Assembly (NCBI GenBank): GCA_964016885.1
Contig: OZ024759.1
Coordinates: 9,114,001-9,178,000, forward strand
Length of the DNA stretch: 64,000 bases
Source of the DNA: Eledone cirrhosa
Taxonomy: Eukaryota
Direction: 5' to 3'
The position numbers were made by a program, and so were the translations under genes. Positions within the stretch are counted from its first letter, which is position 1; the number at the start of each line of letters is the position of its first letter. The notes under the pieces are model-generated. The model was given only the letters and a program-made list of their open reading frames with translations, was not told the DNA's origin and did no database searches. Positions 8,323 to 61,539 of this stretch are shown in pieces.

Positions 8323-8538
8323 GAGACTGAAGGCCAAGGAAAGGGAGATCTCCAGCTTATTAAAGAGATTGAAACTAAATAAAGACGCTATCAAACACGC
8401 AGACAATGTACCAGTCTCTGTAAAGAAGCCGCACAAATCCAGTGGTGATGGAGGTTTGATTGTTATCATCATCTTAGCCGTTATAGTTTTACTTATTGCT
8501 ATCACTACTATAACTGTGTTTGTTCTTATAACAAGAAG
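8323..8538 (+). CDS. Cadherin exon encoding juxtamembrane linker and transmembrane helix
   Basis: tttcctag|G..AGAAG|gttagt; 216 nt, phase 2-2; ..GDGGLIVIIILAVIVLLIAITTITVFVLITRR (hydrophobic helix, basic stop-transfer residues). Confidence 0.9.
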
Positions 8539-8640
8539 GTTAGTAACATTTCTCTGTCTACAAGATCCCATTTAGGGAGAAGCCTTGATATATTGCTTAA
8601 ACTTTTAATCTGTACTAATAATTTATATATTTGTATGTAT

Positions 8641-19010: not shown

Positions 19011-19549
19011 ACGTAATAATATAGCATGGCAATATTGCCATGCTATATTATTATAATGGATGTCAACCCACTGTGGGTCAATATATACATATGTTTCTAT
19101 ATGTCTCTTGTGTTGAAAAGGAGGTCAAGTATGTAAAAAATCACTGAATAATTGCTCCGAAGACTCCAAACCTCGGTTTGGAAGAAACAATTGTAAGCAA
19201 ATAAATGATTTAAACAGAACTTTGATTCATGTAATTTCTATATCTATATATATATATATGAATGTATGTATAGTATATTTGACAATATACCGTATATTTA
19301 ATTAAAAACATTTAGAAGACCATACGCTATCAGTTTTAAAGTAGTGACTATGTCACTTCTTTTTGGCGAAAGAAGGGAGAGAAGCTGACAGTCTGTTTCA
19401 CGCTGGTTGGCGTACATCAGAGCCACGTACTCCCCTGCTTTCGCCGAAAATTATAGACGCTGGATTCTTATAGAATTCCAGTAATAATCAGAAGCTGATT
19501 ATACAGAGTGATTGCCGGTCCAGCAAAAATTAGGTATTAGGATTGGTGA

Positions 19550-19760
19550 GGGTAAAGACCTCGTTTGGTCACAAATGACCATGGGATTCGCACCTAGTAG
19601 TTTCTCTCAAGTCCGGGCAAAATTGTTTGAGGAAGACCAGCAGTTGCTCTTGCGTACCAGTCTCCCCTCTCTACGCCACCAATGTTGGCCGATACAGCTT
19701 GGCATCAGTTACTTCTCAACTCATTTTTACAGTTGAGTAAACTGAAGTAACATGAAATAT
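19550..19760 (-). mobile_element. SINE fragment with Meta-like core
   Basis: Shares gggtaaagacc..gaccatgggatt..gaagaccagcagt with 49165-49290 and acag.tgagtaaactg with 46140. Confidence 0.5.
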
Positions 19761-21109: not shown

Positions 21110-24100
21110 TTGTCACTCTCTCAGTTGCCAGCCTGTCACTCTCTCAGCTGCCAGCCTGTCACTCTCTCAGCTGCCAACCTGTCACTCTCTCAGCAGCCAA
21201 CCTGTCACTCTCTCAGCTGCCAACCTGTCACTCTCTCAGCAGCCAACCTGTCACTCTCTCAGCAGCCAACCTGTCACTCTCTCAGCAGCCAACCTGTCAC
21301 TCTCTCAGCAGCCAGCCTGTCACTCTCTCAGCAGCCAACCTGTCACTCTCTCAGCTGCCAACCTGTCACTCTCTCAGCAGCCAACCTGTCACTCTCTCAG
21401 CTGCCAACCTGTCACTCTCTCAGCTGTCAACCTGTCACTCTCTCAGCAGCCAGCCTGTCACTCTCTCAGCTGCCAACCTGTCACTCTCTCAGCTGTCAAC
21501 CTGTCACTCTCTCAGCAGCCAGCCTGTCACTCTCTCAGCTGCCAACCTGTCACTCTCTCAGCTGTCAACCTGTCACTCTCTCAGCAGCCAGCCTGTCACT
21601 CTCTCAGCTGCCAACCTGTCACTCTCTCAGCTGTCAACCTGTCACTCTCTCAGCAGCCAACCTGTCACTCTCTCAGCTGTCAACCTGTCACTCTCTCAGC
21701 AGCCAGCCTGTCACTCTCTCAGCTGCCAACCTGTCACTCTCTCAGCTGTCAACCTGTCACTCTCTCAGCAGCCAACCTGTCACTCTCTCAGCTGCCAACC
21801 TGTCACTCTCTCAGCTGTCAACCTGTCACTCTCTCAGCAGCCAGCCTGTCACTCTCTCAGCTGCCAACCTGTCACTCTCTCAGCTGTCAACCTGTCACTC
21901 TCTCAGCAGCCAGCCTGTCACTCTCTCAGCTGTCAACCTGTCACTCTCTCAGCAGCCAGCCTGTCACTCTCTCAGCTGCCAACCTGTCACTCTCTCAGCT
22001 GTCAACCTGTCACTCTCTCAGCAGCCAGCCTGTCACTCTCTCAGCTGTCAACCTGTCACTCTCTCAGCAGCCAGCCTGTCACTCTCTCAGCTGCCAACCT
22101 GTCACTCTCTCAGCTGCCAACCTGTCACTCTCTCAGCAGCCAACCTGTCACTCTCTCAGCAGCCAACCTGTCACTCTCTCAGCAGCCAGCCTGTCACTCT
22201 CTCAGCAGCCAACCTGTCACTCTCTCAGCTGCCAACCTGTCACTCTCTCAGCAGCCAACCTGTCACTCTCTCAGCTGCCAACCTGTCACTCTCTCAGCTG
22301 TCAACCTGTCACTCTCTCAGCAGCCAGCCTGTCACTCTCTCAGCTGCCAACCTGTCACTCTCTCAGCTGTCAACCTGTCACTCTCTCAGCAGCCAGCCTG
22401 TCACTCTCTCAGCTGCCAACCTGTCACTCTCTCAGCTGTCAACCTGTCACTCTCTCAGCAGCCAACCTGTCACTCTCTCAGCAGCCAGCCTGTCACTCTC
22501 TCAGCTGTCAACCTGTCACTCTCTCAGCAGCCAGCCTGTCACTCTCTCAGCTGTCAACCTGTCACTCTCTCAGCAGCCAACCTGTCACTCTCTCAGCTGC
22601 CAATCTGTCACTCTCTCAGCTGTCAGCCTGTCACTCTCTCAGCAGCCAGCCTGTCACTCTCTCAGCTGCCAACCTGTCACTCTCTCAGCTGTCAACCTGT
22701 CACTCTCTCAGCAGCCAGCCTGTCACTCTCTCAGCTGCCAACCTGTCACTCTCTCAGCTGTCAACCTGTCACTCTCTCAGCAGCCAGCCTGTCACTCTCT
22801 CAGCTGCCAACCTGTCACTCTCTCAGCTGTCAACCTGTCACTCTCTCAGCAGCCAGCCTGTCACTCTCTCAGCTGCCAACCTGTCACTCTCTCAGCTGTC
22901 AACCTGTCACTCTCTCAGCAGCCAACCTGTCACTCTCTCAGCAGCCAGCCTGTCACTCTCTCAGCTGTCAACCTGTCACTCTCTCAGCAGCCAGCCTGTC
23001 ACTCTCTCAGCTGTCAACCTGTCACTCTCTCAGCAGCCAACCTGTCACTCTCTCAGCTGCCAATCTGTCACTCTCTCAGCTGTCAGCCTGTCACTCTCTC
23101 AGCAGCCAGCCTGTCACTCTCTCAGCTGCCAGCCTGTCACTCTCTCAGCTGTCAACCTGTCACTCTCTCAGCAGCCAGCCTGTCACTCTCTCAGCTGTCA
23201 GCCTGTCACTCTCTCAGCTGCCAATCTGTCACTCTCTCAGCTGTCAGCCTGTCACTCTCTCAGCAGCCAGCCTGTCACTCTCTCAGCTGCCAGCCTGTCA
23301 CTCTCTCAGCTGTCAACCTGTCACTCTCTCAGCAGCCAGCCTGTCACTCTCTCAGCAGCCAGCCTGTCACTCTCTCAGCTGTCAACCTGTCACTCTCTCA
23401 GCAGCCAGCCTGTCACTCTCTCAGCTGTCAGCCTGTCACTCTCTCAGCTGTCAGCCTGTCACTCTCTCAGCTGCCAATCTGTCACTCTCTCAGCTGTCAG
23501 CCTGTCACTCTCTCAGCAGCCAGCCTGTCACTCTCTCAGCTGCCAGCCTGTCACTCTCTCAGCTGTCAACCTGTCACTCTCTCAGCAGCCAGCCTGTCAC
23601 TCTCTCAGCAGCCAGCCTGTCACTCTCTCAGCTGTCAACCTGTCACTCTCTCAGCTGTCAGCCTGTCACTCTCTCAGCAGCCAGCCTGTCACTCTCTCAG
23701 CTGCCAGCCTGTCACTCTCTCAGCTGCCAACCTGTCACTCTCTCAGCTGCCAACCTGTCACTCTCTCAGCTGCCAACCTGTCACTCTCTCAGCTGCCAAC
23801 CTGTCACTCTCTCAGCACCCAGCCTGTCACTCTCTCAGCTGTCAATCTGTCACTCTCTCAGCTGTCAGCCTGTCACTCTCTCAGCTGCCAATCTGTCACT
23901 CTCTCAGCTGTCAGCCTGTCACTCTCTCAGCTGTCAGCCTGTCACTCTCTCAGCTGTCAGCCTGTCACTCTCTCAGCTGCCAACCTGTCACTCTCTCAGC
24001 TGCCAACCTGTCACTCTCTCAGCACCCAGTCTGTCACTCTCTCAGCTGCCAGCCTGTCACTCTCTCAGCACCCAGTCTGTCACTCTCTCAGCACCCAGCC

Positions 24101-25800
24101 TGTCACTCTCTCAGCTGCCAACCTGTCACTCTCTCAGCAGCCAACCTGTCACTCTCTCAGCTGCCAACCTGTCACTCTCTCAGCTGCCAACCTGTCACTC
24201 TCTCAGCTGTCAACCTGTCACACTCTCAGCTGCCAGCCTGTCACTCTCTCAGCAGCCAGCCTGTCACTCTCTCAGCTGCCAACCTCTCACTCTCTCAGCA
24301 GCCAGCCTGTCACTCTCTCAGCTGTCAACCTGTCACTCTCTCAGCTGCCAACCTGTCACTCTCTCAGCTGTCAACCTGTCACTCTCTCAGCTGCCAACCT
24401 GTCACTCTCTCAGCTGTCAACCTGTCACTCTCTCAGCTGCCAACCTGTCACTCTCTCAGCTGTCAGCCTGTCACTCTCTCAGCTGCCAACCTGTCACTCT
24501 CTCAGCTGTCAACCTGTCACTCTCTCAGCTGCCAACCTGTCACTCTCTCAGCTGTCAGCCTGTCACTCTCTCAGCTGCCAACCTGTCACTCTCTCAGCTG
24601 TCAACCTGTCACTCTCTCAGCTGCCAACCTGTCACTCTCTCAGCTGTCAGCCTGTCACTCTCTCAGCTGCCAACCTGTCACTCTCTCAGCTGTCAACCTG
24701 TCACTCTCTCAGCTGCCAACCTGTCACTCTCTCAGCTGTCAACCTGTCACTCTCTCAGCTGCCAACCTGTCACTCTCTCAGCTGTCAACCTGTCACTCTC
24801 TCAGCTGCCAACCTGTCACTCTCTCAGCTGTCTGCCTGTCACTCTCTCAGCTGCCAACCTGTCACTCTCTCAGCTGTCAACCTGTCACTCTCTCAGCTGC
24901 CAACCTGTCACTCTCTCAGCTGTCAGCCTGTCACTCTCTCAGCTGCCAACCTGTCACTCTCTCAGCTGTCAACCTGTCACTCTCTCAGCTGCCAACCTGT
25001 CACTCTCTCAGCTGTCAGCCTGTCACTCTCTCAGCTGCCAACCTGTCACTCTCTCAGCTGTCAACCTGTCACTCTCTCAGCTGCCAACCTGTCACTCTCT
25101 CAGCTGCCAACCTGTCACTCTCTCAGCAGCCAACCTGTCACTCTCTCAGCTGCCAGCCTGTCACTCTCTCAGCAGCCAGCCTGTCACTCTCTCAGCTGCC
25201 AGCCTGTCACTCTCTCAGCACCCAGCCTGTCACTCTCTCAGCACCCAACTTGTCACTCTCTCAGCTGCCAACCTGTCACTCTCTCAGCAGCCAGCCTGTC
25301 ACTCTCTCAGCTGTCAACCTGTCACTCTCTCAGCTGCCAACCTGTCACTCTCTCAGCTGTCAGCCTGTCACTCTCTCAGCTGCCAACCTGTCACTCTCTC
25401 AGCTGCCAACCTGTCACTCTCTCAGCTGCCAATCTGTCACTCTCTCGGCAGCAAACCTGTCACTCTCTCAGCTGCCAATCTGTCACTCTCTCAGCAGCCA
25501 ACCTGTCACTCTCTCAGCTGCCAACCTGTCACTCTCTCAGCAGCCAACCTGTCACTCTCTCAGCTGCCAACCTGTCACTCTCTCAGCTGCCAACCTGTCA
25601 CTCTCTCAGCAGCCAACCTGTCACTCTCTCAGCAGCCAACCTGTCACTCTCTCAGCAGCCAACATGTCACTCTCTCAGCTGCCAACCTGTCACTCTCTCA
25701 GCTGCCAGCCTGTCACTCTCTCAGCAGCCAACATGTCACTCTCTCAGCTGCCAGCCTGTCACTCTCTCAGCACCCAGCCTGAAGCTTGTCACTCTCTCGG
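21110..25800. repeat. 23-bp minisatellite, ~200 copies
   Basis: cagcWgYcaRcctgtcactctct repeated over ~4.7 kb. Confidence 0.98.
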
Positions 25801-28536: not shown

Positions 28537-28770
28537 ATCATCATCATCATCACCGTTTTACGTCCGTTCTTCCACGCTAGCATGGGTTAGACAGGTTGTT
28601 TTGTTGTGGGCAGTGTCTGGTCGGCTGACCATGCCTTGCTCATACAGGAACTGATCTGGCTTGATTTCTACAGCTGGATGCCCTTCCTAACACCAACCTC
28701 ATTTACAGTGAGTGCTGGGTGCTTTTTCGTGGCGCCTACACGTCCACTTTACAGTGTGACTGGGTGCTTT
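28537..28770 (-). mobile_element. RTE 3' end fragment with (GAT)n tail
   Basis: catcatcaccgttttacgtccgttcttccacgctagcatggg..ctacagctggatgcccttcctaacaccaacc, as at 2186. Confidence 0.8.
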
Positions 28771-31032: not shown

Positions 31033-31092
31033 GTAGTTTTTGTTGCCGTTTTAATTGTAGAAATAATTATGAATGTTCTGTTTTTTTGAAAG

Positions 31093-31444
31093 GGACAACT
31101 TTGAGAGGGACAGCATCAACAGCAGTGGTCATGTGAGTGGTAGCAGCCGGGAGACAGATCTCTCTGCATATGCTGCTCTACCTTTTTCTATATCCCAGAT
31201 GAAATCGCGCCTGACTCCATCACAGAAATCAGAAGCTACTCCGGCACATATATCACTAAATGTTGACCAATTTCTACCCGAATCAACCACCGATGATGTT
31301 CCCAACAAATCTGAAGACACAACTGACCTTCCAGATTGTCCAGGAGATGTGTTGAACTCTTCGAAAACGGTAACAGTTTTGGGAGAGGACAAGGAAAACA
31401 CAGAGGAAGCTGGAGATGTAGATGATTTTAGCACAAGCCTTTAA
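31093..31444 (+). CDS. Cadherin last coding exon; acidic Ser/Thr-rich tail ending STSL
   Basis: ttttgaaag|G GAC AAC..; phase 2 matches 20933; [29 protein letters not shown]. Confidence 0.85.
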
Positions 31445-38365: not shown

Positions 38366-40313
<1,948 letters not shown>

Positions 40314-40660
40314 AAACCTTGATGAGGCTGTTTAAACATTCTTAGTGTCTTTGTCAAAATAAACTGAACACAATTCGTATATAATATGTAAACTTTATTC
40401 ATTTTTGTCAAAATAAACTCAGCACGATTCGTATATATGTATTGTTACGGCAACACAGCATATCACCTTGAAGGCTGGACATCTGCAAAAAGAAATAAAA
40501 GACATTTACATACGTTATCAATAAAAAGAATATTAAACTTTATAAGATTCTTCCAAGTTTGTTTTTTATTATATATACATTTAAAAAGAGGAAACAAGAA
40601 AACCTTTTCCTACATCAAGGGAGGTAACTAACGAAGGAAACTAAGAATGTAAATGGTTCT
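40314..40660 (-). repeat. Dispersed third copy of the palindrome arm module
   Basis: 40314-40575 matches 54637-54902 (direct) and 47760-48036 (inverted). Confidence 0.85.
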
Positions 40661-45503: not shown

Positions 45504-45676
45504 ATAAGGAGAGCTGGATGATCATCAACGAGGAAGAGAAGGGGTTCGAGTCAGATCCAGGGAACAGGGCCCTCAGCTATTTCCTCTTCCTATTCTCGGG
45601 CCCTGTTCCCTGGATCTGACTCGAACCCCCTCTCTTCCTCCCTGTGATCTCGTTGATGATCATCCAGCTCTCCTTA
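45504..45676. repeat. Inverted repeat (~65-bp arms)
   Basis: taaggagagctggatgatcatcaacgag..gggttcgagtcagatccagggaacagggccc and its reverse complement at 45598-45676. Confidence 0.85.
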
Positions 45677-45934: not shown

Positions 45935-46250
45935 TTTCATCATCATTTCATTTTACGTCCGCTTTTTCCCTGCTTGCAAGGGTGGGACAGGAACTGATTC
46001 TGGCTTGATTTCTACAGCTGGATGCCCTTCCTAACACCAACCTCATTTACAGTGAGTGCTGGGTGCTTTTTTGCCGTGGCGCCTCCACGACCACTTTGCA
46101 GTGGAATGATAGGGAACCCAGTTCTATCTTCTCATTTCTACAGCTGAGTAAACTGGAGCAATGTGAAATAAAGTGTCTTGCTCAAGGAAATAACACATCA
46201 CCGGTCTGAGAATTGGGTGATGTGTTGTTTCCTTGAGCAAGACACTTTGT
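45935..46250 (-). mobile_element. RTE 3' stub followed by a SINE core folded into a hairpin
   Basis: ctacagctggatgcccttcctaacacc; aaagtgtcttgctcaaggaaa..tttccttgagcaagacacttt. Confidence 0.7.
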
Positions 46251-46504: not shown

Positions 46505-47205
46505 AATTTTGTTATACTTTGGGAGGGCCATGTTGCCAATAAGAAACACACGCACCAGTTGCTTTCACTCCAATTTATTATAAATTAAATTTATAAATTT
46601 AGGATTTTATAAATTTCCGGTTGGTTGGTTGGTTGGTTCCACAAGCGGACGGTTGTTCATATATTGTCAAAGTTCTTTCGCCACAAATTCTGTGACCTTT
46701 TCAGTGACTGGGGATTCTTTTCTTTGTTTTGTGCCTCTCCTTTGTTCTGTCCTACGCCATCTTGTTTTTGTGTGTGTTGTGTGCTTAGTTTGCGCATGTG
46801 TTACATCTGGGTGTCTGTGTGTGTTTTTATTTGTTTATGTAAATGCTACTGGTTGGTTGTTTGTTCTATGTGTGTGTGTGTTTTCATTTTGTCCTTAACT
46901 GTAAGTTGTGATGTTGCTATTCCATTCATGTTTTCTATTTAATTCTGGTTGGAGTTCATTTATGTTTATTGCCTCTGTGATTTGTCTAAACATTGCGTCT
47001 TTTCTGTGTGTAGATTCTATTTTTATTTCTATGTTCTCTAATTTGTCCTTATGTTCTATTTTAGCATGTTGGTGGAGTATTGATGATTCTTTTTTATCTT
47101 GAAGCTCTCGCCAGTGTTCATTTAACCGTTCTCCTATACTACGAGCTGTCTCACCTATGTACACTATATTCTTATCTTTACATTGTCCTTCAGTACATCT
47201 TACGC
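46505..47205 (-). mobile_element. Penelope-like element 3' fragment: GIY-YIG endonuclease plus 3' region
   Basis: CTEGQCKDKNIVYIGETARSIGERLNEH..SILHQH..RQITEAINI..PELNRKHEW; hammerhead-like motif downstream at 46666-46708. Confidence 0.88.
46666..46708 (-). ncRNA. Variant hammerhead motif (core CUGAAAA)
   Basis: Minus strand: gtca CTGAAAA g gtcacag aat ttgtggc GAAAG aa CTT tgac; conserved G8 reads A. Confidence 0.45.
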
Positions 47206-47208
47206 TAT

Positions 47209-47759
47209 ATCTACATTTCTAGAAATGTAGTATTTAGCATAAGATTACTAAAACTCGAGAACCACCCAACCGAGTTTTATTCAAACTTTACACATGTAGT
47301 ACTTATGGTCCCGTGAGTGGTGTTTTGAGCAAAATAAATTTCAAATGTTCAATGCATTAGGCGATTTAGCGATCTCTCTCTATAATTCTTAGTCTTTCTC
47401 TTTTTAGATAGATACATACATATAACGTCGCACCCTTATAATATCTGTCTGTATGCCTAACTGTCTGCAAATAGTCTTCCTGTTTTCCTTCGATTGCAAC
47501 GTTTTTCGAAATATTTACTTCTGCGTTCACAGATTGATTTTTTTAGTTTCAGAAGATCCCGTTAAGGGTGAAAGCAGCGATTCTTTGCTTAAACATTAAT
47601 CTGTAATTTTAATATATATAATTATATATTCGTGTACAGATATTTTTGCATATACAATAGCAAAATATAAACAAACATATTTATTTCGCGAGGCTCGATA
47701 AGGATAAATATATAAGAACCCTAGAGCAAATCCCGAGCAACGCCGGGCCATTCTGCTAG
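47209..47759 (+). mobile_element. Non-autonomous Helitron
   Basis: A|TC start; 3' hairpin cccgagcaacgccggg then ccattctgCTAG|T. Confidence 0.75.
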
Positions 47760-49101
47760 TAAAACAAACTTGGAAGAATTTTATAAAGTTTAATATTCTT
47801 TTTATTGATAACGTATGTAAATGACTTTTATTACTTTTTACAAATGTCCAGCCTTCAAGGTGATATGCTGTGTTGCCGTAAAAAATGGCGAACTCTCTGT
47901 TAAGAAAGCTTACATATATACGAATCGTGTTCAGTTTATTTTGACAAAAATGAATAAAGTTTACATATTATATACGAATTGTGTTCAGTTTATTTTGACA
48001 AAGACACTAAGAATGTTTAAACAGCTTCATCAAGGTTTCAAATCCAACAGTCGCTCCAAAAATAGACAGTATCACCAATGGTTACAATCTAAGGAAAAAG
48101 AATAGAAAATATCAATAATGTGAAAAGGAAAGAAATATCAGAGAAAGAACCATCAAGGGTTCGAATGTAACAGTTGTCCAAAAGTAGTAAGTAACAGAAA
48201 GGGAATGAAAAGTAACCATCAATAATGTAAAAAGTGTCATTAAGGGTTCGAATCCAACAGTCGTCCAAGAATGTAACCATCTAAGTATCAAGAACCTTCA
48301 AGTATGTAAAGAAAGTATTGAAGGTTCGAATCCAACTGTCTTCCAAGAACCTTGAAGTATCAAAGGTTCGAATCTAAGTGAGTCAAGAAAGTAGTAAGAA
48401 GTAGCTAAGGTTCTAATCTAACTGTCTTCCAAGAATGTAAAGAAAGTATCTAAGGTTCAATCTAAGTAAGTCAAGAAAGTAGTAAGAAGTAGCTAAGGTT
48501 CTAATCTAACTGCCTTCCAAGAATGTAAAGAAAGTATCTAAGGTTCGAATCTAAGTGAGTCAAGAAAGTAGTAAGAAGTAGCTAAGGTTCTAATCTAACT
48601 GTCTTTCAATAATGTAAGTAACCTTCAAGGGTTCTAAGAAGACAGTTGGAATAGAACCTTAGTTACTTCTTACTACATTCGAACCTTCTAACTTAACTCG
48701 ATTTTTGCTCTAAAATTTTAATGTATTTATCTCCCTTTTTTTAAACTCTTTTTTTTTTTAAGTGACTTCCGGTTCTTTGGAAGAGAACCATTTTGGATAT
48801 TACTTTCATGTAAAGAGGTATGTAATGTTTTCTTTGCTACTAGGACTAATATATACACTTTATGTCAATAACGGATATAGTTTTCTGTACACATACATTC
48901 TCTTAGATACACACTTTTCAGAAAACACGTTTCACATAGAATCTTTCTCGACATTTTATAGTGTTTACCTCTGATCAGAGGTAAACACTGTATTTAAGGT
49001 CGAGTGATTAGCGGCCTTTAGACTCACCTGATCAATGAAACTTTTGATAATACTAGAAATAAAACCTTTTTGTGCAGCCGACCATGTTATTCTTCAATCT
49101 T

Positions 49102-49167
<66 letters not shown>

Positions 49168-51020
49168 GTAAAGACCCTCACGATTGACCATGGGATTTTC
49201 ATCCTCCGAGACCGGGCAACGTTGTTTGTGGAAGACCAGCAGTCTTCCCTCCCCACGCCACTGATGTTGTCCAACTCATTTCTACAGACTGATCTAGAGA
49301 AACGTGAGACAACGCTAGTAAATCTTTATTTTATATTGAAGAGTTTCACTTGAACATTTTCCGTTTATTTCCCTCCATAATGTCAGCAATAATTAACCAA
49401 TAGTTTTGTTTAGCTGCTGCCCCACCTCCACGTTGTGTTGTATTTCCAATGTAATGTCACCTCACACATTTCTCGGTCATATCAAATAGAATTTAGCGTA
49501 TTTCTATATTATTTAAGTTGGCAAATAAGATAACATCTCTGTCTGACGACCGATCCAGATGTTTACTATTATTGTCTATGATCCAGAAACCTTTGGTAAT
49601 GGAGTAGTTTGTGTTGTTCGCTTTCTAATATATATATAAACTCATCGCTATTTATATACACACACAGACATATATTTATATATATGTATATATAGTTATG
49701 TAATAAACAACATAAAGCAATTATTCCATTTACCAGTGGTTTCTTAAAAGCAAAAAATTTTGCTTTCAATCATCAGAATGAAAAAATCCTGGTGTCTTTA
49801 TTGATATTGGATTCTAAAAACAAAAATGCAATCTATAACTATTAAGCTCTGTTACCTACATAGAGCACTCTTTTTTCCTGGATTTGTCCGACGGAATTAC
49901 TTCATTTATATGTATATATATACACACACAGAGACAGACATATATATATATACACACACACACACAGACATATATATACACATACATATATATATACACA
50001 CACACATATATATACACACACACACAGACATATATATACACACACACAGACATATATATACACACACACAGACATATATATACACACACACATATATATA
50101 TACACACAGACACACACACACTTATATATATATACAGTTGGTAAATAATATACTTGTTCTTCTCTTCATCATATCCTCGTGTTGGAGGACTTTCTCTTTG
50201 TCAACATGTCCCAGTCAGTCGTTGGAGTGTCATACTAGATGTGCAGTCGTGCTTTACAATCATGAGTTCGATTCTCGTAGCAAGCTTCTGAAGGACTTGT
50301 GCTTGATTCTGATAGTTACTTTACCATGGCAGAATCTCCTTTGGCCCTGCTAGATTCTGGTTATTAATATTAACCAGAATCTTTTGAGAACTGTCGTCTT
50401 TGGTCAGAGTGAATATTTCACCCGTCTCCGTAACACACACACACACACACTTAATATGCATTTTTAGTTTAATATTATTTTTATTGATAATGTACGTAAA
50501 TGACTCTCATTTCTTTTTACAGATGTCCAGCCATCAAGATCATATGCTGTGTTGTTTGCCGTAACAAGTGGGAATGTCGTAGTTTCTTTTAATAAATATA
50601 CGAGAAAACTAATCGCTATACACACACACACACACATCTTTTAATAAAGAAAGTTTACATATTATATACGAATTGTATTCAGTTTATTTTGAGAAAAATG
50701 AATAAAGAAAGTTTAGATCTTATATACGAATTGTGTTCAGTTTATTTTGACAAAAATGAATAAAGAAATGAAGAAATGAATAAAGAAACTGAGTAAGTCG
50801 TGATATAAAGAACGTAAGTCTATTGAAGTTTCTAAATAAAGAAACTAAGAGAAAGATAAAGTTTCTTGAAAGAAACTAAAAATGATGAAGTTTCTAAATA
50901 AAGAAACTAAGAATGTTTTTGAAATTATCGAAAAAAAAATCTATGAAATAAGACCCTGTCTTTAAAATTTTTTTTATTAAAGGGAGGTAACTCTGTAATA
51001 TTTTGAAATGAATTACCTCC

Positions 51021-51321
51021 CTTTGAAACACCTTCGTCACCGTCGTTACCACCATCGGCACCTTCGTAACCGTCGTCACCATTACCGCCGCCACCTGGTG
51101 GCGGAGGAAAAGATACCGACGACGACGGTGGTGCACCGTCGTCTTCGTCGGTGTCTTTACCGCCGCCACCTGGTGGCGGAGGAAAAGATACCGCCGAAGA
51201 CGGTGGTGCACCTTCGTCGTCGTCGGTGTCTTTACCGCCGCCACCTGGTGGCGGAGGTAATGGTGACGACGGTTACGAAGGTGCCGATGGTGGTAACGAC
51301 GGTGACGAAGGTGTTTCAAAG
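51021..51321. repeat. GC-rich apex of the palindrome with 75-bp tandem hairpin units
   Basis: ccgccacctggtggcgg x3 alternating with aaagataccg..gacggtggtgcacc..cggtgtcttt x2. Confidence 0.92.
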
Positions 51322-52809
51322 GGAGGTAATTCGTTTCAAAATATTACAGAGTTACCTCCCTTTAATAAAAAAAAAATTAAAAGAGGGGAGTCTTATTTCA
51401 TAGACTTTTTTTTCGATAATTTCAAAAACATTCTTAGTTTCTTTATTTAGAAACTTCATCATTTTTAGTTTCTTTCAGGAAACTTTATCTTACTTTTAGT
51501 TTCTTTATTTAGAAACTTCAATAGACTTACGTTCTTTATATCACGACTTACTCAGTTTCTTTATTCATTTCTTCATTTCTTTATTCATTTTTGTCAAAAT
51601 AAACTGAACACAATTCGTATATAAGATCTAAACTTTCTTTATTCATTTTTCTCAAAATAAACTGAATACAATTCGTATATAATATGTAAACTTTCTTTAT
51701 TAAAAGATGTGTGTGTGTGTGTAGCGATTAGTTTTCTCGTATATTTATTAAAAGAAACTACGACATTCCCACTTGTTACGGCAAACAACACAGCATATGG
51801 CCTTGATGGCTGGACATCTGTAAAAAGAAAAGAGAGTCATTTACATACATTATCAATAAAAAGAATATTAAACTAAAAATTCATATTAAGTGTGTGTGTG
51901 TGTGTGTGTGTGTTACGTAGACGGGTGAAATATTCACTCTGACCAAAGACGACAGTTCTCAAAAGATTCTGGTTAATATTAATAACCAGAATCTAGCAGG
52001 GCCAAAGGAGATTCTGCCATGGTAAAGTAACTATCAGAATCAAGCACAAGTCCTTCAGAAGCTTGCTACGAGAATCGAACTGATGATTGTAAAGCACGAC
52101 TGCACATCTAGTATGACACTCCAACGACTGACTGGGACATGTTGACAAAGAGAAAGTCCTCCAACACGAGGATATGATGAAGGGAAGTAGAAGTATATTA
52201 TTTACCAACTGTATATATATAAGTGTGTGTGTCTGTGTGTAAATATATATATTGTGTGTGTGTATATATATGTGTGTGTGCATATATATGTCTGTGTGTG
52301 TGTGTGTGTCTGTGTGTATATATATATATATGTCTGTGTGTGTGTGTATGTATATATATATATATATATATAGCGATGAGTTTTCTCGTATATATATATC
52401 TATAAATGTCTGTGTGTGTATATATATAGCGATGAGTTTTCTCGCATATATGTCTGTGTGTGTGTATATATATTATATACATATATGTCGGGGGGGGGGG
52501 GGTATATAGCGATGAGTTTTCTCGTATGTATATATATATATATATAACCCATGCTAGTGCGTCTAACCCATGCTAGCATGGAAGAACAGACGTAAAACGA
52601 TGATGATGATATATATATATATTAGAAAGTGAACACAAAATATAACTACTCCATTACCAAAGGTTTCTGGATCATAGACAATAGTAAACGTTTGGATCGG
52701 TCGTCAGACAGAGATGTTATCTTATTTGCCAACTTAAATAATATAGAAATACGCTAAATTCTATTTGATATGACCGAGAAATATGTGAGGTGACATTACA
52801 TTGGAAATA

Positions 52810-52990
52810 CAACACGTGGAGGTGGGGCAGCAGCTAAACACAACGTGGGGGTGGGGCAGCAGCTAAACACAACGTGGAGGTGGGGCAGCAGCTAAACACA
52901 ACGTGGGGGTGGGGCAGCAGCTAAACACAACGTGGAGGTGGGGCAGCAGCTAAACACAACGTGGGGGTGGGGCAGCAGCTAAACACAACT
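52810..52990. repeat. 29-bp tandem x6, right arm only
   Basis: cagctaaacacaacgtggRggtggggcag with alternating A/G variants; single copy at ~49410-49437. Confidence 0.92.
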
Positions 52991-53085
52991 ATTGGTTAAT
53001 TATTGCTGACATTATGAGTACTTGATACTTGGGATAGTAAAGTGTGACTCTGCCAGTATATTCACATATACTTATCTATATTGAA

Positions 53086-53161
<76 letters not shown>

Positions 53162-54903
53162 GCATGCACACTTCCATATATGAATGTGTAAACATATATA
53201 GTGATTGCTTAATCTTTGCAAATGATTGCCGTTTCCCTATGCAACCCCTAGTATTGATGTACCCAGATTTAGAGAGCAGTAGACGACCACACACTTCACA
53301 ACTCCAGCTCCCTATGTTCTTATTGATAACAAGAGAAATAGAGAAGATAATAAAAATGTAGCTGTATATAGAGAAGGTATGTGTCTAGTGAAGAATGTGT
53401 GTCTCTAAAGAGGAAAGGTGTAAATAGAATCATGTCAATAAAGAAGATATATGTATAAAGAGGTTTAGTTTCTACGAATAAAATGTACATATTGATATGG
53501 TGTGTAGAGTTATATTGTATACAAAGAAAACATTACATACCTCTTTAAATGAACGTAATATCCAAGATGATCTTTTTCAAAGAACCGGAAGTCAATCGAA
53601 AATAAAGCAACAGAAGAGTTCCATAAAGGGGAAATAACTCAAATAAAAAACGATTGCTTGCGCTATCTAAGAGGCAGGCCAACATATAACCATCCTGCAC
53701 ATAATCCTGGCTGCCGAGGCCGCGTGCCCTCGCAACGATTCGATCTTCCGACACATAGAATGTGTCACGCCGAGGGTTCGAATCCAAAAGTTCTCCAAGA
53801 ATGTAAGTAACTATCGTGGGTTCTAAGTATCAAGAATGTAAAGAAAGTATCTAAGGTTCGAATCTAAGTAAGTCAAGATAGAATGTAGTAAGAAGTAACT
53901 AAGGTTCTATTGGAACTGTCTTCTTAGAACCCTTGAAAGTTACTTAGATTAGAACCTTAGATACTTCTTACTACATTCTAAACTTGACTCTTAGATTCTA
54001 ACCCTTGATACTTCTTACTACATTCTTGACTTACTTAGATTCGAGGTTCTTGGAAGACAGTTGGATTCGAACCTTAGATACTTCTTACAGAAAGCTTACA
54101 TATATTTCTAAGAATGTAATATAACCTTCAAGGGTTCTAAGAATCTAAGTTAGAAGGTTACTTACATTCTTGGAAGACTGTTAGATTAGAACCTTAGCTA
54201 CTTCTTACTACATTCTTGACTTACTTAGATTCTAACCCTTGATAATTCTTACTACATTCTTGACTTACTTAGATTCTAACCCTTGATAATTCTTACTACA
54301 TTCTTGACTTACTTAGATTCGAGGTTCTTGGAAGACAGTTGGATTCGAACCTTCAATACTTTCTTTACATACTTGAAGGTTCCTGATACTTAGATGGTTA
54401 CATTCTTGGACGACTGTTGGATTCGAACCCTTAATGACACTTTTTACATTATTGATGGTTACTTTTCATTCCCTTTCTGTTACTTACTACTTTTGAACGA
54501 CTGTTACATTCGAACCCTTGATGGTTCTTTCTCTAATATTTCTTTCCTTTTCACATTATTGATATTTTCTATTCTCTTTCCTTAGATTGTAACCATTGGT
54601 GATACTGTCTATTTTTGGAGCGACTGTTGGATTTGAAACCTTGATGAGGCTTTTTAAACATTCTTAGTGTCTTTGTCAAAATAAACTGAACACAATTCGT
54701 ATATAATATGTAAACTTTATTCATTTTTGTCAAAATAAACTGAACACGATTCGTATATATGTAAGCTTTCTTAACAGAGAGTTTGCCATTTTTTATGGCT
54801 TGAAGGCTGGATATCTAAAAAGAAATAAGTCATTTACATACGTTATCAATAAAAAGAATATTAAACTTTATAAAATTCTTCCAAGTTTGTTTTTTATTAT
54901 ATA

Positions 54904-55299
54904 CTAGGAGAATGGCCCGGCGTTGCTCGGGATTTGCTCTAGGGTTCTTTATATATTTATCCTTATTGAGCCTCATCAAATAAATACGTTTGTTTATATT
55001 TTGCTATTGTGTATGCAAAAATATCTGTACACGAATATATAATTATATATATTAAAATAACAGATTAAAGTTTAAGCAAAGAATCGCTGCTTTCACCCTT
55101 AACTCTGAAACTAAAAAAAATCAATCTGTGAACGCAGATGTAAATATTTCGAAAAACATTGCAACCGAAGGAAAACAGGAAGACTATATGAAGACAATCA
55201 GGCATACAGACAGATATTATAAGGGCGCAACTTTATATCTATGTATCTATCTAAAAAGAAATTATAGAGAGAGATCGCTAAATCGCCTAATGCATTGAA
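54904..55299 (-). mobile_element. Inverted, 5'-truncated copy of the Helitron at 47209
   Basis: ctaggagaatggcccggcgttgctcggg is the reverse complement of the 3' terminus. Confidence 0.75.
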
Positions 55300-55332
55300 A
55301 ATTGTAATAGAATTGCCAAAGTCATAGAGTCC

Positions 55333-55958
55333 TGTGTCAGAAAAACACTCTGGAACTCTCACAGCCTTATCTGGCCCTCGCAATTTGGATTTCTCCCTAA
55401 CTCCAGCTGCTGTGATCAACTCATCGAGTTTCTTGAAGACATTACCCAAATCACTGATGGCGGCTCATGGGTGGATGCAGTTTATCTTGACTTTGCTAAA
55501 GCTTTTAACTCTCTGCAATGGGTGTGAGAGATGATCTTTTTAACTGGTTGAAGTCCTTCATTCTCAGTCGAAAAGAGGTAGTTCGGGTCTAGGACAGCAT
55601 TCCTCACGGTATGAGATGACATCTGGTGTACCAAAGGTCATATATTAATGACATAGATGCCAACATAAAGAATGACACAGTGTTGAAATATGCAGATGAC
55701 ATCAAGCTGTACCTTGAGATAAAAGGACAGATCGTGAACACTATAGATCTTTCCTGCAATCAGACCTGGACACAATGTAGCAATGGACCATGGACAGGAA
55801 ACTCAAGCTGGCTGTGAACAAGTGTACTACCATGCATTCTGGGAGGAAAAACCCAGTTTTCACATACTCCCTCCACAACACCAATCTCAAGATGTCTTCT
55901 TGTAAACATGACCTGGACATTACTGTCAGCAGCAATTTGTGTTGGACAAAGCACATCT
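55333..55958 (+). mobile_element. Decayed CR1 RT fragment
   Basis: YINDIDANIKNDTVLKYADDIKLYLEIK; homologous to 700-1395; deletions and stops. Confidence 0.88.
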
Positions 55959-56189
55959 CTACACCTGATATTCCCCCTGCATACACACGTGTGTGTGTGT
56001 CTATGTGTATATCATGACTCATACACTGCTCCCTTTCCTGACAATTGTACATTATTCTATGTACCATACCTGCACCTTTGATACCGAGGAAGTTGATCAT
56101 TCTATTATTATTTTCTATTTCAAGATGAAGACTGTAATTATTTAAAAAAAAAGTTATTATTTTCTTTCCTATTTAGAATTATTAGGTCT

Positions 56190-56959: not shown

Positions 56960-59205
56960 GTATCAGATATGAGCGGCACCAAGTCTCAAGTTGACTACAT
57001 TATGGTCAACAAAAACTGGAAAAACTCTGTACACAACTGCGAAGCATACAACAACTTCAGCAGCATGGAATCGGATCACCGTATCACAACAGCAGAGCTT
57101 AAATTAAGCTTGAGAACCAGTAAAGCGTTATCTACCAGAGTCAACTATGATTGAGCTTCACTAAGGGATCCTGATTTGAGCGATCTTTATACTGTTACCT
57201 TTAGAAACAAGTATGCAAGCTTGTGCACAGAAAACGAATCCATCACAGACATACACTCACCTCATTCAAGCAAATGACGGAGCAGCCACAGAGCTTCTTC
57301 CACGAAAAAAGAACAAAAAGAAACAAACTTCGGATGATCCGCGAGTCATCGATGCAAGAGAGAAAATTCAGAAGGCTTCTAGGGCATACACAGAGGATCC
57401 AACAGAGCATAATTGCCAGAAACTTCAACGATGCAAGAATACACTGCAGAAGGCATATGACACTATTTCCGAGGAAGAACTTGATAAATGGATAGCTGAA
57501 GTAGAATCTGCAGATGCGAAATCGAAGCATGGAGAAAGCTGGAAGCTAATAAACGAGATCACTGGGAGGAAATCTGTCAAACAAGCCATAACAAAAGCAA
57601 ACTCTAAGGAAGATCACATCAAGAAGTGGTACTTACACTTCAAGGAATTACTTGGAAAAGAACCTAAGGTTGTGGTTGAGATCAGCGAAATTGCACCAGT
57701 GCTGAAAAATCTGGGAATCTCAGACATAATCTTCACACCTGCTGAATACTCAATAGCCAAGAAGTCTCTGAAGGAGGGGAAAGCCTTTGGATCTGATGGC
57801 ATCGGCCCGGAAGTTCTCAAGCATTGCAACCTGGATGACATCATGCTCGGCTATGTCAACAAGCTGATGGTCGGCGAGAAGCCTGACCAATGGTCAGAAA
57901 GCAATATGAAGCCTCTACCAAAGTCGGGTGATCTCGGCCATACAGACAACTACAGGGGAATAGTTTTGTCCTCCATTGCAGCCAAATTGGCAAATCGAAT
58001 GCTTCTCAACAGGAATCCACCAAAAATCAATCCACAACTATGTCTGAACCAGAATGGCTTCCAACCAGGAAGATCGACTGTTGCTTATATTCTTGCATTG
58101 AGGAGATTAATCGAGGGTTTCCAATCACACAACCTAAAAGCTGTCTTGACGTTTGTAGACTTTCAAAAGGCATTCGACAGCATCCACCGAGGGCGAATGC
58201 TCCAGATACTGAGAGTATATGATGTGCCTGAAAAGATAGTTCAGGCTATAGGTCTGATGTACGAGGGTACTTGAGCTCACATATTGACACAAGACAGAAA
58301 CACTGATTACTTTGAGATTCTCGCAGGTGTTCACCAAGGTGACACGATTGCACCTTTCCTATTTGCAATTGTCCTCAATTATGCAATGAAACAGGCCATT
58401 CATGGGAAGGAAGAAGAGATTGGTTTCAAATTGGATCGAAGGAGAAGTTGTCACTGAAACAGACTTCGCCGATGACAATGGCTTGATCAAAGAGGAAATC
58501 AGCCAAGCTCAAAGAATTCCTCACACGTGTCGAGGTTGAATCAGGCAAAATAGGACTGCATCTCAATGCAAAGAAGACCGAAATCATGCACTACAATCAG
58601 GTTGATCCAGCTCCAGTTCTTGCTAAGGACGGTACAACAATCAAAACAGTTGAGAACTTTAAGTATCTTGGTGCTTGGATGCACAGCCCACGCAAGGAAT
58701 TTGAAGTTAGAAAAGCACTAGCATGGGCGGCATGTCATAAGTTACTGAAGGTGTGGAAGTCCAACCTATACCGCAAAATCAAGGAGCGTCTCTTCCTAGC
58801 AACTGTTGAATCCGTCCTGCTTTACGGCAGTGAAACGAGGACTATTGACAAAGTGCTATGCAAGAGACTTGACGGATGTTGAGAATGGCTCTCAACATTT
58901 CTTGGAAACAGAAGCTGACAAATACAGAACTATACAGATCACTACCACCAGTCTCAAATAAAGTTGTCTGCGGACGAATGAAACTGGCTGGGCACTGCAT
59001 ACGTCATCCAGAAGAGACAGCATCACAACTTGTACTCTAGAAACCGACGGTCAGACAAAGAAACGTGGGAAGACAGGCCGTCTCATTCATTGATACCCCG
59101 CTGAGAGATTGATACCCATTGATAACATCGAGGAACTGAGAAATGTCATGCTCGACCGGAACGATTGGAGAAAGCGTGCTGAATCTGCGAGTGTAAACTC
59201 GGCCG
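56960..59205 (+). mobile_element. Decayed RTE-like LINE (end of APE endonuclease, RT, C-terminus)
   Basis: SQVDYIMV..SDHRI; NYRGIVLSS, NQNGFQPGRST, FVDFQKAFDSIHR, FADD at ~58465, ESVLLYGSET; several stops and frameshifts. Confidence 0.9.
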
Positions 59206-59489: not shown

Positions 59490-59872
59490 TTTCACATCAA
59501 AGTGATAAGCCCGCCAGAGTGTAGTGTTAGGGTTCACATCAAAGTGATAAGCCCGCCACAGTGTAGTGTTAGGGTTCACATCAAAGTGATAAGCCCGCCA
59601 CAGTGTAGTGTTAGGGTTCACATCAAAGTGATAAGCCCGCCATAGTGTAGTGTTAGGGTTCACATCAAAGTGATAAGCCCGCCACAGTGTAGTGTTAGGG
59701 TTCACATCAAAGTGATAAGCCCGCCACAGTGTAGTGTTAGGGTTCACATGACAGTGATAAGCCCACCACAGTGTAGTGTTAGGGTTCACATCAAAGTGAG
59801 AAGCCCGCCACAGTGTAGTGTTAGGGTTCACATCAAAGTGAGAAGCCCGCCACAGTGTAGTGTTAGGGTTCA
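59490..59872. repeat. 42-bp tandem, ~9 copies
   Basis: ttcacatcaaagtgataagcccgccacagtgtagtgttaggg. Confidence 0.95.
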
Positions 59873-60260
59873 CCGTAGGAGTTGCGTCGGCTTTTTAACT
59901 CCTAATTCTTCCGCTATAAGGAGCTGGTGTAGGTGGTTTTGTTGTGACTCTGACGTCCTCTTGATTAGATTTACTTTGAATGTGTCGTATAACACAGAGC
60001 CAGGTGGTGCCAATACCAGGTGACAGACAACATTCATGATCTCTGGAGACAACGAACCAATGACGTGAGTTAGATGAGCTGCCTTACTAACAATCCAGTT
60101 CAATGCCAACTGAGCAATATGTGCGAACCATAGGACTGGGTTGTGTACCCAGAATGGTGGTATTTTTGATGTAATCACTGCTTGAACTGCCATATCTGTA
60201 GTGGACGAGTTGTCGTCCATTAGAGACATTGATGGTGTTGTGATGTTCTGCAATGAAGCG
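59870..60260 (-). mobile_element. Gypsy-type LTR retrotransposon gag N-terminal fragment
   Basis: KIPPFWVHNPVLWFAHI.AQ..YDTFKVNLIKRTSESQQNHLHQLLIAEELGVKKPTQLLR. Confidence 0.8.
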
Positions 60261-60464
60261 AAGACTGTGATTCGTAAGCGTCAACAGTTGAAGTAAAACA
60301 ATGACAGGAGCATAAATTTGTTCAATTAGAGAGAATCAGTTGATTTAGAATCAACCGACTTTTAATAAACAGATGTCAAGCACTCAACAGTATATGTTTG
60401 TCTTTTTTATTTATTATTATAACAAAACTCCAGTTACTTTAGTCCATCCCTATTTATATATATA

Positions 60465-61325
60465 ATTCAGAGAGCTTATACCATTATTGGCCACAAAAGG
60501 TTTCTCTCTAAAAATGAAAGGCAGGCTGTATGATGCCTGTATACGAACAGCAATGTTACATGGCAGTGAGACATGGGCATTGTGGGCAGAGGATCTGCGC
60601 AGACTGGAGAGGAACGAAGCTTGCATGCTCCGTTGGATGTGTAATAGTAATATACGCGAATGGCAAAGCATAAATGAACTAAGTGAGAAATTAGGAATAA
60701 GAGGGATCAGATGCTGTTTACTCGAGAGAAGACTACGTTGGTTTGGCCACGTGATGCGCATGAAAGATGACAGCTGCATAAAAAAGTGCAGGGCGATCAA
60801 AATAGACGGTAGCCATGGAGTAGGCAGACCCAGAAAAACCTGGGACGACTTGATAAATTCCGACCTCACACACTTACACCTCTCCAAGACAATGTCACTG
60901 GACCGAGATCTTTGGCGCTACACAGTAATACAGAAGACCCGCCTTGCCTAAGTACAAAGCGAAACCTACAGTCAGTAGGCACCTCCTAACCAAATATACA
61001 CCCCCAACCCACTACCCTTACCCCCACCCCTTTCTCTGTTAAGTTATGTTGGTACCACAACATCCACTCCAAACTAATGAGGTCGTGTAGGTGTCACGAG
61101 AAAAAAACACACAGTCCACGCTGTAATGTGGCTATGTAGGTAAAAAGTTGCCAGTCCACACTGTAAACGTGGTTGGTGTTAGGAAGGGTATCCAGCCGTA
61201 GAAAACCTGCCAGACAGTCCTATACGAGCGAGACAGGGTCACCCAACCAATCTTGCCTCAAGTGGGACAAATCCAGTCTAAACCCATGCTAGCGTGGAAG
61301 ATGGACGTTAAACGACGATGATGAT
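60465..61325 (+). mobile_element. RTE LINE 3' fragment (ORF C-terminus, 3'UTR, GAT tail)
   Basis: KGRLYDACIRTAMLHGSETW..RRLRWFGHVMRM..GRPRKTW; contains one copy of the 48-bp satellite unit at ~61085-61140. Confidence 0.9.
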
Positions 61326-61539
61326 ATAATACCAGGTCATTGTATAATCATTTATAGTCCTTTTGAAACGACATTTAATCATATTTTCTTATATATATTT
61401 TTCCTCTTTAACAAAAATAACATTTTCAAAAATATATTCGTATCTCCGCGAAATTTCATTAAAAAATATGTAATATTAAGAAATTTAAAAGGAAAAGCAG
61501 TCGGGCCACTAAAGCAATGTTATGCCATCAATATATATT

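Follow-up and report, generated by a model that had tools for sequence, protein, structure and literature searches.

An 8-kb palindrome in the genome of Eledone cirrhosa and its possible origin by fold-back duplication of a multi-copy repeat unit

The stretch considered here, hereafter the window, comprises 64,000 nucleotides of the genome of Eledone cirrhosa (assembly GCA_964016885.1, contig OZ024759.1, positions 9,114,001 to 9,178,000 of the forward strand), consists of repeat-dense animal DNA free of N, with short interspersed nuclear element (SINE) motifs that we take to be octopus-like, and contains a palindrome of about 8 kb, the two arms of which meet at a short GC-rich apex. The inverted repeat ends exactly at 47348 and 55299, with its centre of symmetry at 51171, and inverted self-BLAST matches pair 47344-48528 with 55303-54162 (1614 bits) and fold 49913-52428 back onto itself (3729 bits). 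The 8-kb inverted duplication, which had been proposed as a mirror symmetry about ~51171 by an earlier reading of the letters alone (the sequence-only reading), is thus real. It likely represents the scar left by a rearrangement, not a transposon or RNA gene, and is likely without function.

Each arm is a composite of modules (Table 1). From the outside inwards these are 25 terminal bp, a Helitron-like piece, a repeat module (module M), a 44/88-bp tandem array, a block only 84% alike between the arms, an unalignable zone and a block 97% alike, followed by microsatellites, a block of 300 bp that contains a 31-bp hairpin, another module M, 31-bp repeats and the stem that adjoins the apex. Several stable single-stranded DNA (ssDNA) hairpins are predicted within each arm. 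Over seven alignable blocks, 59 of 2156 aligned bases are substituted between the left and right arms (2.7%); divergence is 1.7-3.4% in six of the seven and 5.1% in the outermost, the Helitron-like piece. The six comprise the outer module M (5/230, 2.2%), the start of the tandem array (7/341, 2.1%), 49376-49434 (2/59), 49435-49640 (6/202, 3.0%), 50129-50430 (5/302, 1.7%) and 50450-51081 (14/627, 2.2%). The claim of the sequence-only reading that the outer arms are more diverged does not extend beyond the Helitron-like piece, which alone stands at 5%, and the array, which differs by expansions, the mirror array at ~53770-54663 carrying some of its own.

An eighth block, 48716-48836/53522-53648, had been overlooked in the sequence-only reading. 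Its homology is clear (score 148, against a shuffle maximum of 33), although its two copies are merely 84% alike, with 19 differences in 120. The zone next to it was correctly described as unalignable: 48837-49100 and 53200-53521 have no alignable homology (score 42, shuffle maximum 49), and the comparison of 49165-49375 with its right-arm counterpart remains likewise at shuffle level. The events private to each arm are confirmed too, namely the SINE-like piece on the left and, on the right, a retroposon stub and a 29-bp unit, single in the left arm, which is expanded x6.1 at 52814-52989. The stub, which we take from its tail pattern to be RTE-like, is 94% alike to 28543-28592 over 50 bp.

The nesting of the structure, also claimed earlier, is real, as the outer and inner copies of module M differ at 22 of 223 positions (10%). 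The module lies downstream of an acceptor-like site and has one frame which is open in the inner copies and interrupted by a stop in the outer and third copies. This third copy, a lone one within the window, lacks both the Helitron-like piece and the terminal 25 bp; since it also differs upstream from the arm copies, it offers no clean empty site for the Helitron-like piece. It is followed by stem and array motifs in opposite orientation at 40617-40660. All 17 matches of the array motif in the window fall within the two arms, as do all nine exact copies of a decamer within it, which we presume to be B-box-like (48158-48690, 53775-54520). The Helitron-like piece is 387 bp long, lies 25 bp inside each palindrome end and makes up less than one tenth of each arm. 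It displays a 5' TC, a hairpin near its 3' end, a CTAG end and no target-site duplication, in agreement with the end features given for Helitrons in the accessible part of PMC6544945 (5' TC, a 16-20-bp hairpin near the 3' end, a CTRR end and no target-site duplication). The hairpin folds weakly (z -1.9), and a related internal segment, 76% alike, is found in the window at 8562-8636.

Table 1. Features of the palindrome, its apex and its flanks (positions in the window).
Feature	Position	Strand	Remarks
Palindrome, left arm	47348..51081	+	~3.7 kb composite repeat unit
Palindrome, right arm	51261..55299	-	mirror of left arm
Outermost 25 bp	47348..47372	+	identical to mirror 55275-55299
Non-autonomous Helitron-like piece, left	47373..47759	+	A/TC start; 16-bp hairpin 47732-47747; CTAG/T end
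Helitron-like piece, mirror copy	54904..55274	-	20/395 substitutions (5.1%) vs left copy
Module M, outer copy	47761..48010	+	acceptor-like site and 54-58-bp duplicated unit; mirror 54664-54902
Degenerate 44/88-bp tandem array	48011..48700	+	ends in local fold-back 48632-48680; mirror ~53770-54663
84% block	48716..48836	+	mirror 53522-53648; ends in donor-like site
Unalignable zone	48837..49375	.	counterpart 53017-53521; contains left-private SINE-like piece
Left-private SINE-like piece	49165..49243		71% to 19549-19644
97%-alike block	49376..49640	+	mirror 52605-53016
Inner block	50129..50430	+	mirror 51916-52217; 31-bp hairpin 50352-50382, z -4.8
Module M, inner copy	50462..50760	+	58-bp x2.2 unit; mirror ~51580-51880; high-copy dispersed repeat
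Stem adjoining apex	50885..51081	+	hairpin 50979-51024; GC-rich 9/21-bp repeats; mirror 51261-51455
Apex, direct tandem of 75-bp GC-rich unit	51082..51260	.	two hairpins per unit, layout A-B-A-B'-A
Right-private retroposon 3' stub	52547..52615	+	matches 28543-28592, 61276-61328, 2193-2237
Third, lone copy of outer module M	40314..40575	-	9/252 substitutions vs left outer copy
Left flank, GIY-YIG endonuclease remnant	46895..47218	-	Pfam PF01541, 23.8 bits vs cut-off 22.6
Right flank, decayed LINE (long interspersed nuclear element) reverse-transcriptase remnant	55312..55961	+	78% to longer copy 696-1416

The 179 bp of the apex form a direct tandem (75 bp x2.3), the units of which differ at 4 of 75 positions (95% alike) when compared directly; when its halves are compared inverted, 13 of 89 pairs are mismatched (85% alike), five of them as G-T on the plus strand. 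Within each unit, the hairpins A and B fold strongly (z -8.3). All three A hairpins share the same direct asymmetry, the mirror of the left stem begins immediately after the third A, and at the asymmetric bases the right apex junction departs from the reverse complement of the left one. The apex is nevertheless predicted to fold as one long hairpin (-240.8 kcal/mol over 411 nt), and because the central region still folds in this way, the model presents it as an imperfect centre, not a true spacer. The earlier description of a palindrome with essentially no spacer thus agrees with the folding model, but not with the direct tandem and its mismatched pairs. The reading frames of the apex, Pro/Gly/Asp-rich on both strands, have no protein match, near or longer, and no counterpart in the collection searched, and are read as a by-product of triplet-based palindromes; in metagenomes, the apex pattern has two matches, which are alike over 35 bp only and are taken as chance.

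At the outer ends, 23 x 23 end pairings reveal no target-site duplication: flanking repeats that match exactly reach 5 bp of A/T at best, and none of at least 8 bp is present with one mismatch. The flanks are unrelated to each other and consist of two different broken retroelements: the GIY-YIG remnant, presumably Penelope-like by association, on the left, and the LINE remnant, which we take to be CR1/L2-like, on the right. Between the arm end and the start of LINE homology lie 12 bp, and the part of the LINE which precedes the cut, present in the copy at 696-1416, is found nowhere else in the window, the left flank included. With an old LINE truncated where a young arm stops, this distal end is read as a rearrangement joint and not an insertion site.

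No transposase, Rep or other coding remnant was detected among the frames scanned in the palindrome, and these frames match no protein family or protein in Pfam, PDB, Atlas or the protein searches, as the sequence-only reading, which saw no real open reading frame (ORF), had anticipated. Module M and other short frames gave no Pfam match above the cut-off in 28 peptides, and no match in PDB or Atlas. A 94-aa frame of the outer module has no protein match and reaches DUF5733 in Pfam at E 0.004, below the cut-off.

Further evidence on the repeat unit comes from other sequencing runs. Seven runs are listed, from a single study and none recorded as RNA; four of them contain 0.23-0.45 of the sampled words. 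Four runs were mapped, onto 50140-51290 only. The run with the highest fraction (0.45), the short-read run X1, may represent another population or species, and its contig depth is, by the tool's own warning, not copy number, which renders any copy estimate rough. In X1, a single contig covers 50140-50276 at depth 78, and one 197-bp contig covers 50885-51080/51081 at depth 93; bins across the apex sum to a depth of 144-593 over 51037-51231, and those of module M reach a summed depth of 2354. The lowest contigs stand at 4-8. The contrast of 78 and 93 with 4-8, together with the third copy in the window, points to a multi-copy unit; the stem and apex are likely multi-copy and, if the low contigs represent single loci, would by this rough estimate be present in about ten or more arm copies. 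Restriction-site-associated DNA (RAD) reads of X5 and X6 match almost solely module M, and 0.89 and 0.95 of them, respectively, continue into unlike sequence, so that module M behaves as a dispersed repeat. Depth in X4 and X5 is zero from 50959 onward, and X6 has mere traces up to 51036. A joint in X1 which skips 50591-50700 at depth 86 indicates that M and the 58-bp unit are directly adjacent in other family members.

Variants in X1 bear on the relationship between the arms. Of 40 rows shown (34 more exist), 27 were used, 13 having been dropped for no or minor X1 depth (9) or for their position within an indel cluster (4). The window letter is common to both arms in 19 of the 27, and in 13 of those 19 rows another letter accounts for 83-100% of X1 depth (2 of the 13 lie beside indels); the right arm has X1's letter in seven rows, and one row holds a third letter. 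A 109-bp contig with a depth of 17 matches both arms without a difference. Since the arms share alleles which are rare in X1, they are, to judge from these sequence comparisons, likely sister copies within a wider family.

Taken together, these observations are best explained by a duplication in place, inverted through fold-back, of one copy of a young and likely multi-copy repeat unit of ~4 kb, an explanation to which we assign a probability of roughly 0.55. In such an event, a break or stalled fork would have exposed the self-complementary 75-bp minisatellite at the end of the unit, whereupon the last hairpin A may have annealed through its 3' half to the 5' half of the first, with 10 of 11 bases paired. 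From there, synthesis would have run ~4 kb back along the arm, copying the stem, and the new arm would have been joined to the LINE, with loss of the sequence lying between. Later, the arms would have drifted to 2-3%, acquiring array changes and the retroposon pieces private to each, and one of them probably exchanged its middle for an older paralogue, the presumed source of the 84% block. The palindrome would probably have persisted owing to its mismatched centre, to the option of forming local hairpins in place of a single cruciform, and to the indels that interrupt its arms. The strand switches precisely where the last hairpin ends, a position that fold-back priming predicts, and the short central inverted repeat, the asymmetric centre kept once and the sharp passage to mirror sequence are those of a fold-back duplication. 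The uniform divergence of 1.7-3.4% in six of seven blocks fits a single event and, with the shared rare letters, accords with sister arms of one age, but one block is only 84% alike.

A comparable route is known from experimental systems. In the portion of PMC7999016 available, fold-back priming at short inverted repeats is described, for both yeast and mammalian cells, as a source of large palindromic duplications, by way of inverted repeats of 42-229 bp or, in mutants, of 5-9 bp, with an instability that falls with longer spacers and arm divergence. The present palindrome resembles those so described in its large mirror duplication on a short pre-existing inverted repeat and in its asymmetric centre, which occurs once; it differs in that it resides in an assembled animal genome, has aged to 2-3%, and has for its primer a hairpin tandem that is likely multi-copy. 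Fold-back palindromes and foldback-like repeats are both already known kinds, and the palindrome is likely built from an undescribed repeat family. If the fold-back origin is true, the locus offers a well-preserved natural record of palindrome formation, in which the priming site is still readable, and the minisatellite may seed such rearrangements wherever it is present; this would be a useful case and not a new system.

Several points weigh against a fold-back origin. The main loose end is the 84% block, which one recent event leaves unexplained, so that a later exchange with a paralogue is needed. Several private insertions within 4 kb are many for a divergence of 2.7%. The apparent multi-copy state of the stem and apex in X1 also fits a family of which all members are palindromic, and the letters shared by the arms could be lineage differences, X1 perhaps being another population or species. 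At each of the seven listed sites with different letters in the two arms, one of them found in X1, it is the right arm that agrees with X1, an asymmetry which cannot be sized since the variant table lists departures from the left arm only. Finally, no listed contig or read spans 50140-51290 and no strand-changing joint is listed, which leaves the join at the apex without independent confirmation.

The apparently multi-copy apex raises the alternative of a hairpin-centred, non-autonomous family, copied by a rolling-hairpin or rolling-circle mechanism with an HUH/Helitron-type enzyme acting in trans and inserting as palindromic dimers without target-site duplication. The X1 depths of stem (93) and apex (144-593), the stable ssDNA hairpins of each arm, the position of the Helitron-like 5' end 25 bp inside each palindrome end, and the third locus, with family motifs in both orientations, are all compatible with such a family, yet the scanned frames hold no Rep or coding remnant, no second palindromic copy is seen, and the apex and module patterns are absent from viral contigs. 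The Helitron-like piece, moreover, looks like a passenger, since it is intact, having a CTAG end of its own, and the third copy lacks it. This alternative is doubtful, as is, to the same degree, the accompanying proposal of an undescribed animal family in which a GC-rich, self-folding minisatellite serves as turning point of rolling-hairpin copying and multi-kb palindromic dimers, integrated without a target-site duplication, carry Helitron pieces and possibly exon fragments. Should most family members prove palindromic, a spread by hairpin-turned copying, which we have not found described for animal repeats in the literature listings consulted, would be indicated, as would a built-in source of long double-stranded RNA. 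Non-autonomous Helitrons and the bivalve Cg_HINE Helentrons (PMC6544945, PMC7492417) show some likeness: each arm has the TC...CTAG piece with its 16-bp hairpin, and the Cg_HINE elements, like the arms, combine microsatellites, short arrays and hairpins in modules without target-site duplication. The piece is nonetheless a minor part of the arm, the accessible parts of these sources do not describe such elements as palindromic, and the 25 longest of 212 inverted pairs include no HINE-type pair of 11-12-bp subterminal inverted repeats framing the unit. A viral origin was considered separately and rejected, the apex and module patterns having 0 matches in viral contigs and 0 of 33 candidates being confirmed.

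A classical foldback transposon, non-autonomous and related to Mutator or P, with modular terminal inverted repeats (TIRs) of 4 kb around a tiny middle domain, is unlikely. The arms, long, modular, inverted and with tandem repeats inside, are as such an element demands, and parts of the structure are multi-copy; Tetris (PMC4079207), Galileo and FB share these long modular arms, the internal tandem repeats, the lack of an ORF and the variable middle. The palindrome departs from them in that none of the end pairings yields an 8-10-bp target-site duplication, the flanks are unrelated broken elements and no second full copy is shown, and its arms are over twice as long as the TIRs of up to 1,735 bp given for Tetris in the part of PMC4079207 seen. 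The third copy, besides, lacks the terminal 25 bp. The sequence-only reading had suggested either a modular foldback-type element or a retained hairpin-RNA locus; the structure is indeed modular, nested, non-coding and built of multi-copy parts, but neither class assignment is supported. Literature searches, judged by titles and the opening lines of abstracts, returned no description of a foldback transposon in octopus or of this palindrome or repeat family. The words 'palindrom', 'foldback' and 'hairpin' do not occur in the main text of a paper on Octopus vulgaris repeats (PMC13282606), the supplements or repeat library of which may include the family as an unknown repeat.

Quite improbable is an assembly artefact, arising from fold-back reads, or from the joining, at the apex repeat, of two haplotypes or two paralogous loci. 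The missing apex-spanning read or contig would accord with it, a multi-copy unit invites mis-joins, and fold-back reads do occur, at ~0.55-0.6% of genomic reads from Oxford Nanopore Technologies (ONT) sequencing according to the accessible part of PMC12338684. Such reads are there described as near-perfect mirrors, unlike the present arms with their unrelated flanks and kb-scale private content; it was on the private events that the sequence-only reading had rightly discounted a simple fold-back read artefact. The window is also free of N and resolves arrays of 8.5 kb, suggesting that the reads far exceeded the apex of 179 bp in length, and allelic arms would remain alike beyond 47348.

Very improbable, in turn, but still a lead, is an older pair of gene fragments in inverted orientation, paralogous exons patchily kept alike by gene conversion between the arms. 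The 84% block can be read as a short exon, with conservative changes and a donor-like end, and module M, after its acceptor-like site, retains one open frame in the inner copies. In X4, the stretch of module M at 50523-50605 is enriched relative to neighbouring sequence, and three contigs depart from the mapped region at 50521, the acceptor AG; the kind of run that X4 represents is, however, not on record. The frames of module M and of the 84% block have no protein match, in searches that are weak tests owing to the short queries, and the outer and third copies carry their stop. The dispersed third copy is 96% alike, which makes the parts young, and on this ground an old palindrome maintained by conversion receives a low rank.

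A selected long hairpin-RNA locus, whether a source of small interfering RNA (siRNA) or an ADAR substrate, is the most improbable of all, for although a transcript across the apex would in the model fold into a long duplex, the arm mismatches on the plus strand (16 G-T, 17 A-C, 24 other) have no G-U bias, none of the 103 Rfam matches listed at E up to 1 reaches the gathering score, nearly all being generic miRNA hairpins or TA repeats, and the arms decay through insertions as neutral DNA does.

The palindrome lies ~16 kb downstream of a putative gene for a single-pass membrane protein, of which two likely exons are visible on the plus strand: one at 8403-8540, which encodes a transmembrane stretch and has a donor site at its end, and one at 31073-31444, the last exon, acidic, Ser/Thr-rich and closed by a stop; neither matches a Pfam family above the cut-off. 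A 110-codon, ATG-started, Pro-rich frame (38701-39033, plus strand) lies between two TA microsatellites and has no Pfam match. Downstream of the palindrome, remnants of RVT_1 (57180-58274, plus strand) and DUF7041 (59870-60280, minus strand) are present, the latter presumably retrotransposon gag-like. Two large minisatellite arrays occupy 8654-17211 (48 bp x177, with a unit that resembles part of the dispersed repeat 2333-2553) and 21111-25771 (4.7 kb, based on 23 bp). Smaller inverted structures also occur: a 170-bp hairpin at 45505-45676 (self-match of 75% across 183 columns), bordering an element that we take from its motif to be an RTE-type LINE fragment, is likely a 5' inversion, and short inverted junctions lie at 47189-47252, at the 5' end of the GIY-YIG remnant, and at 46170-46248, inside a SINE-like piece.

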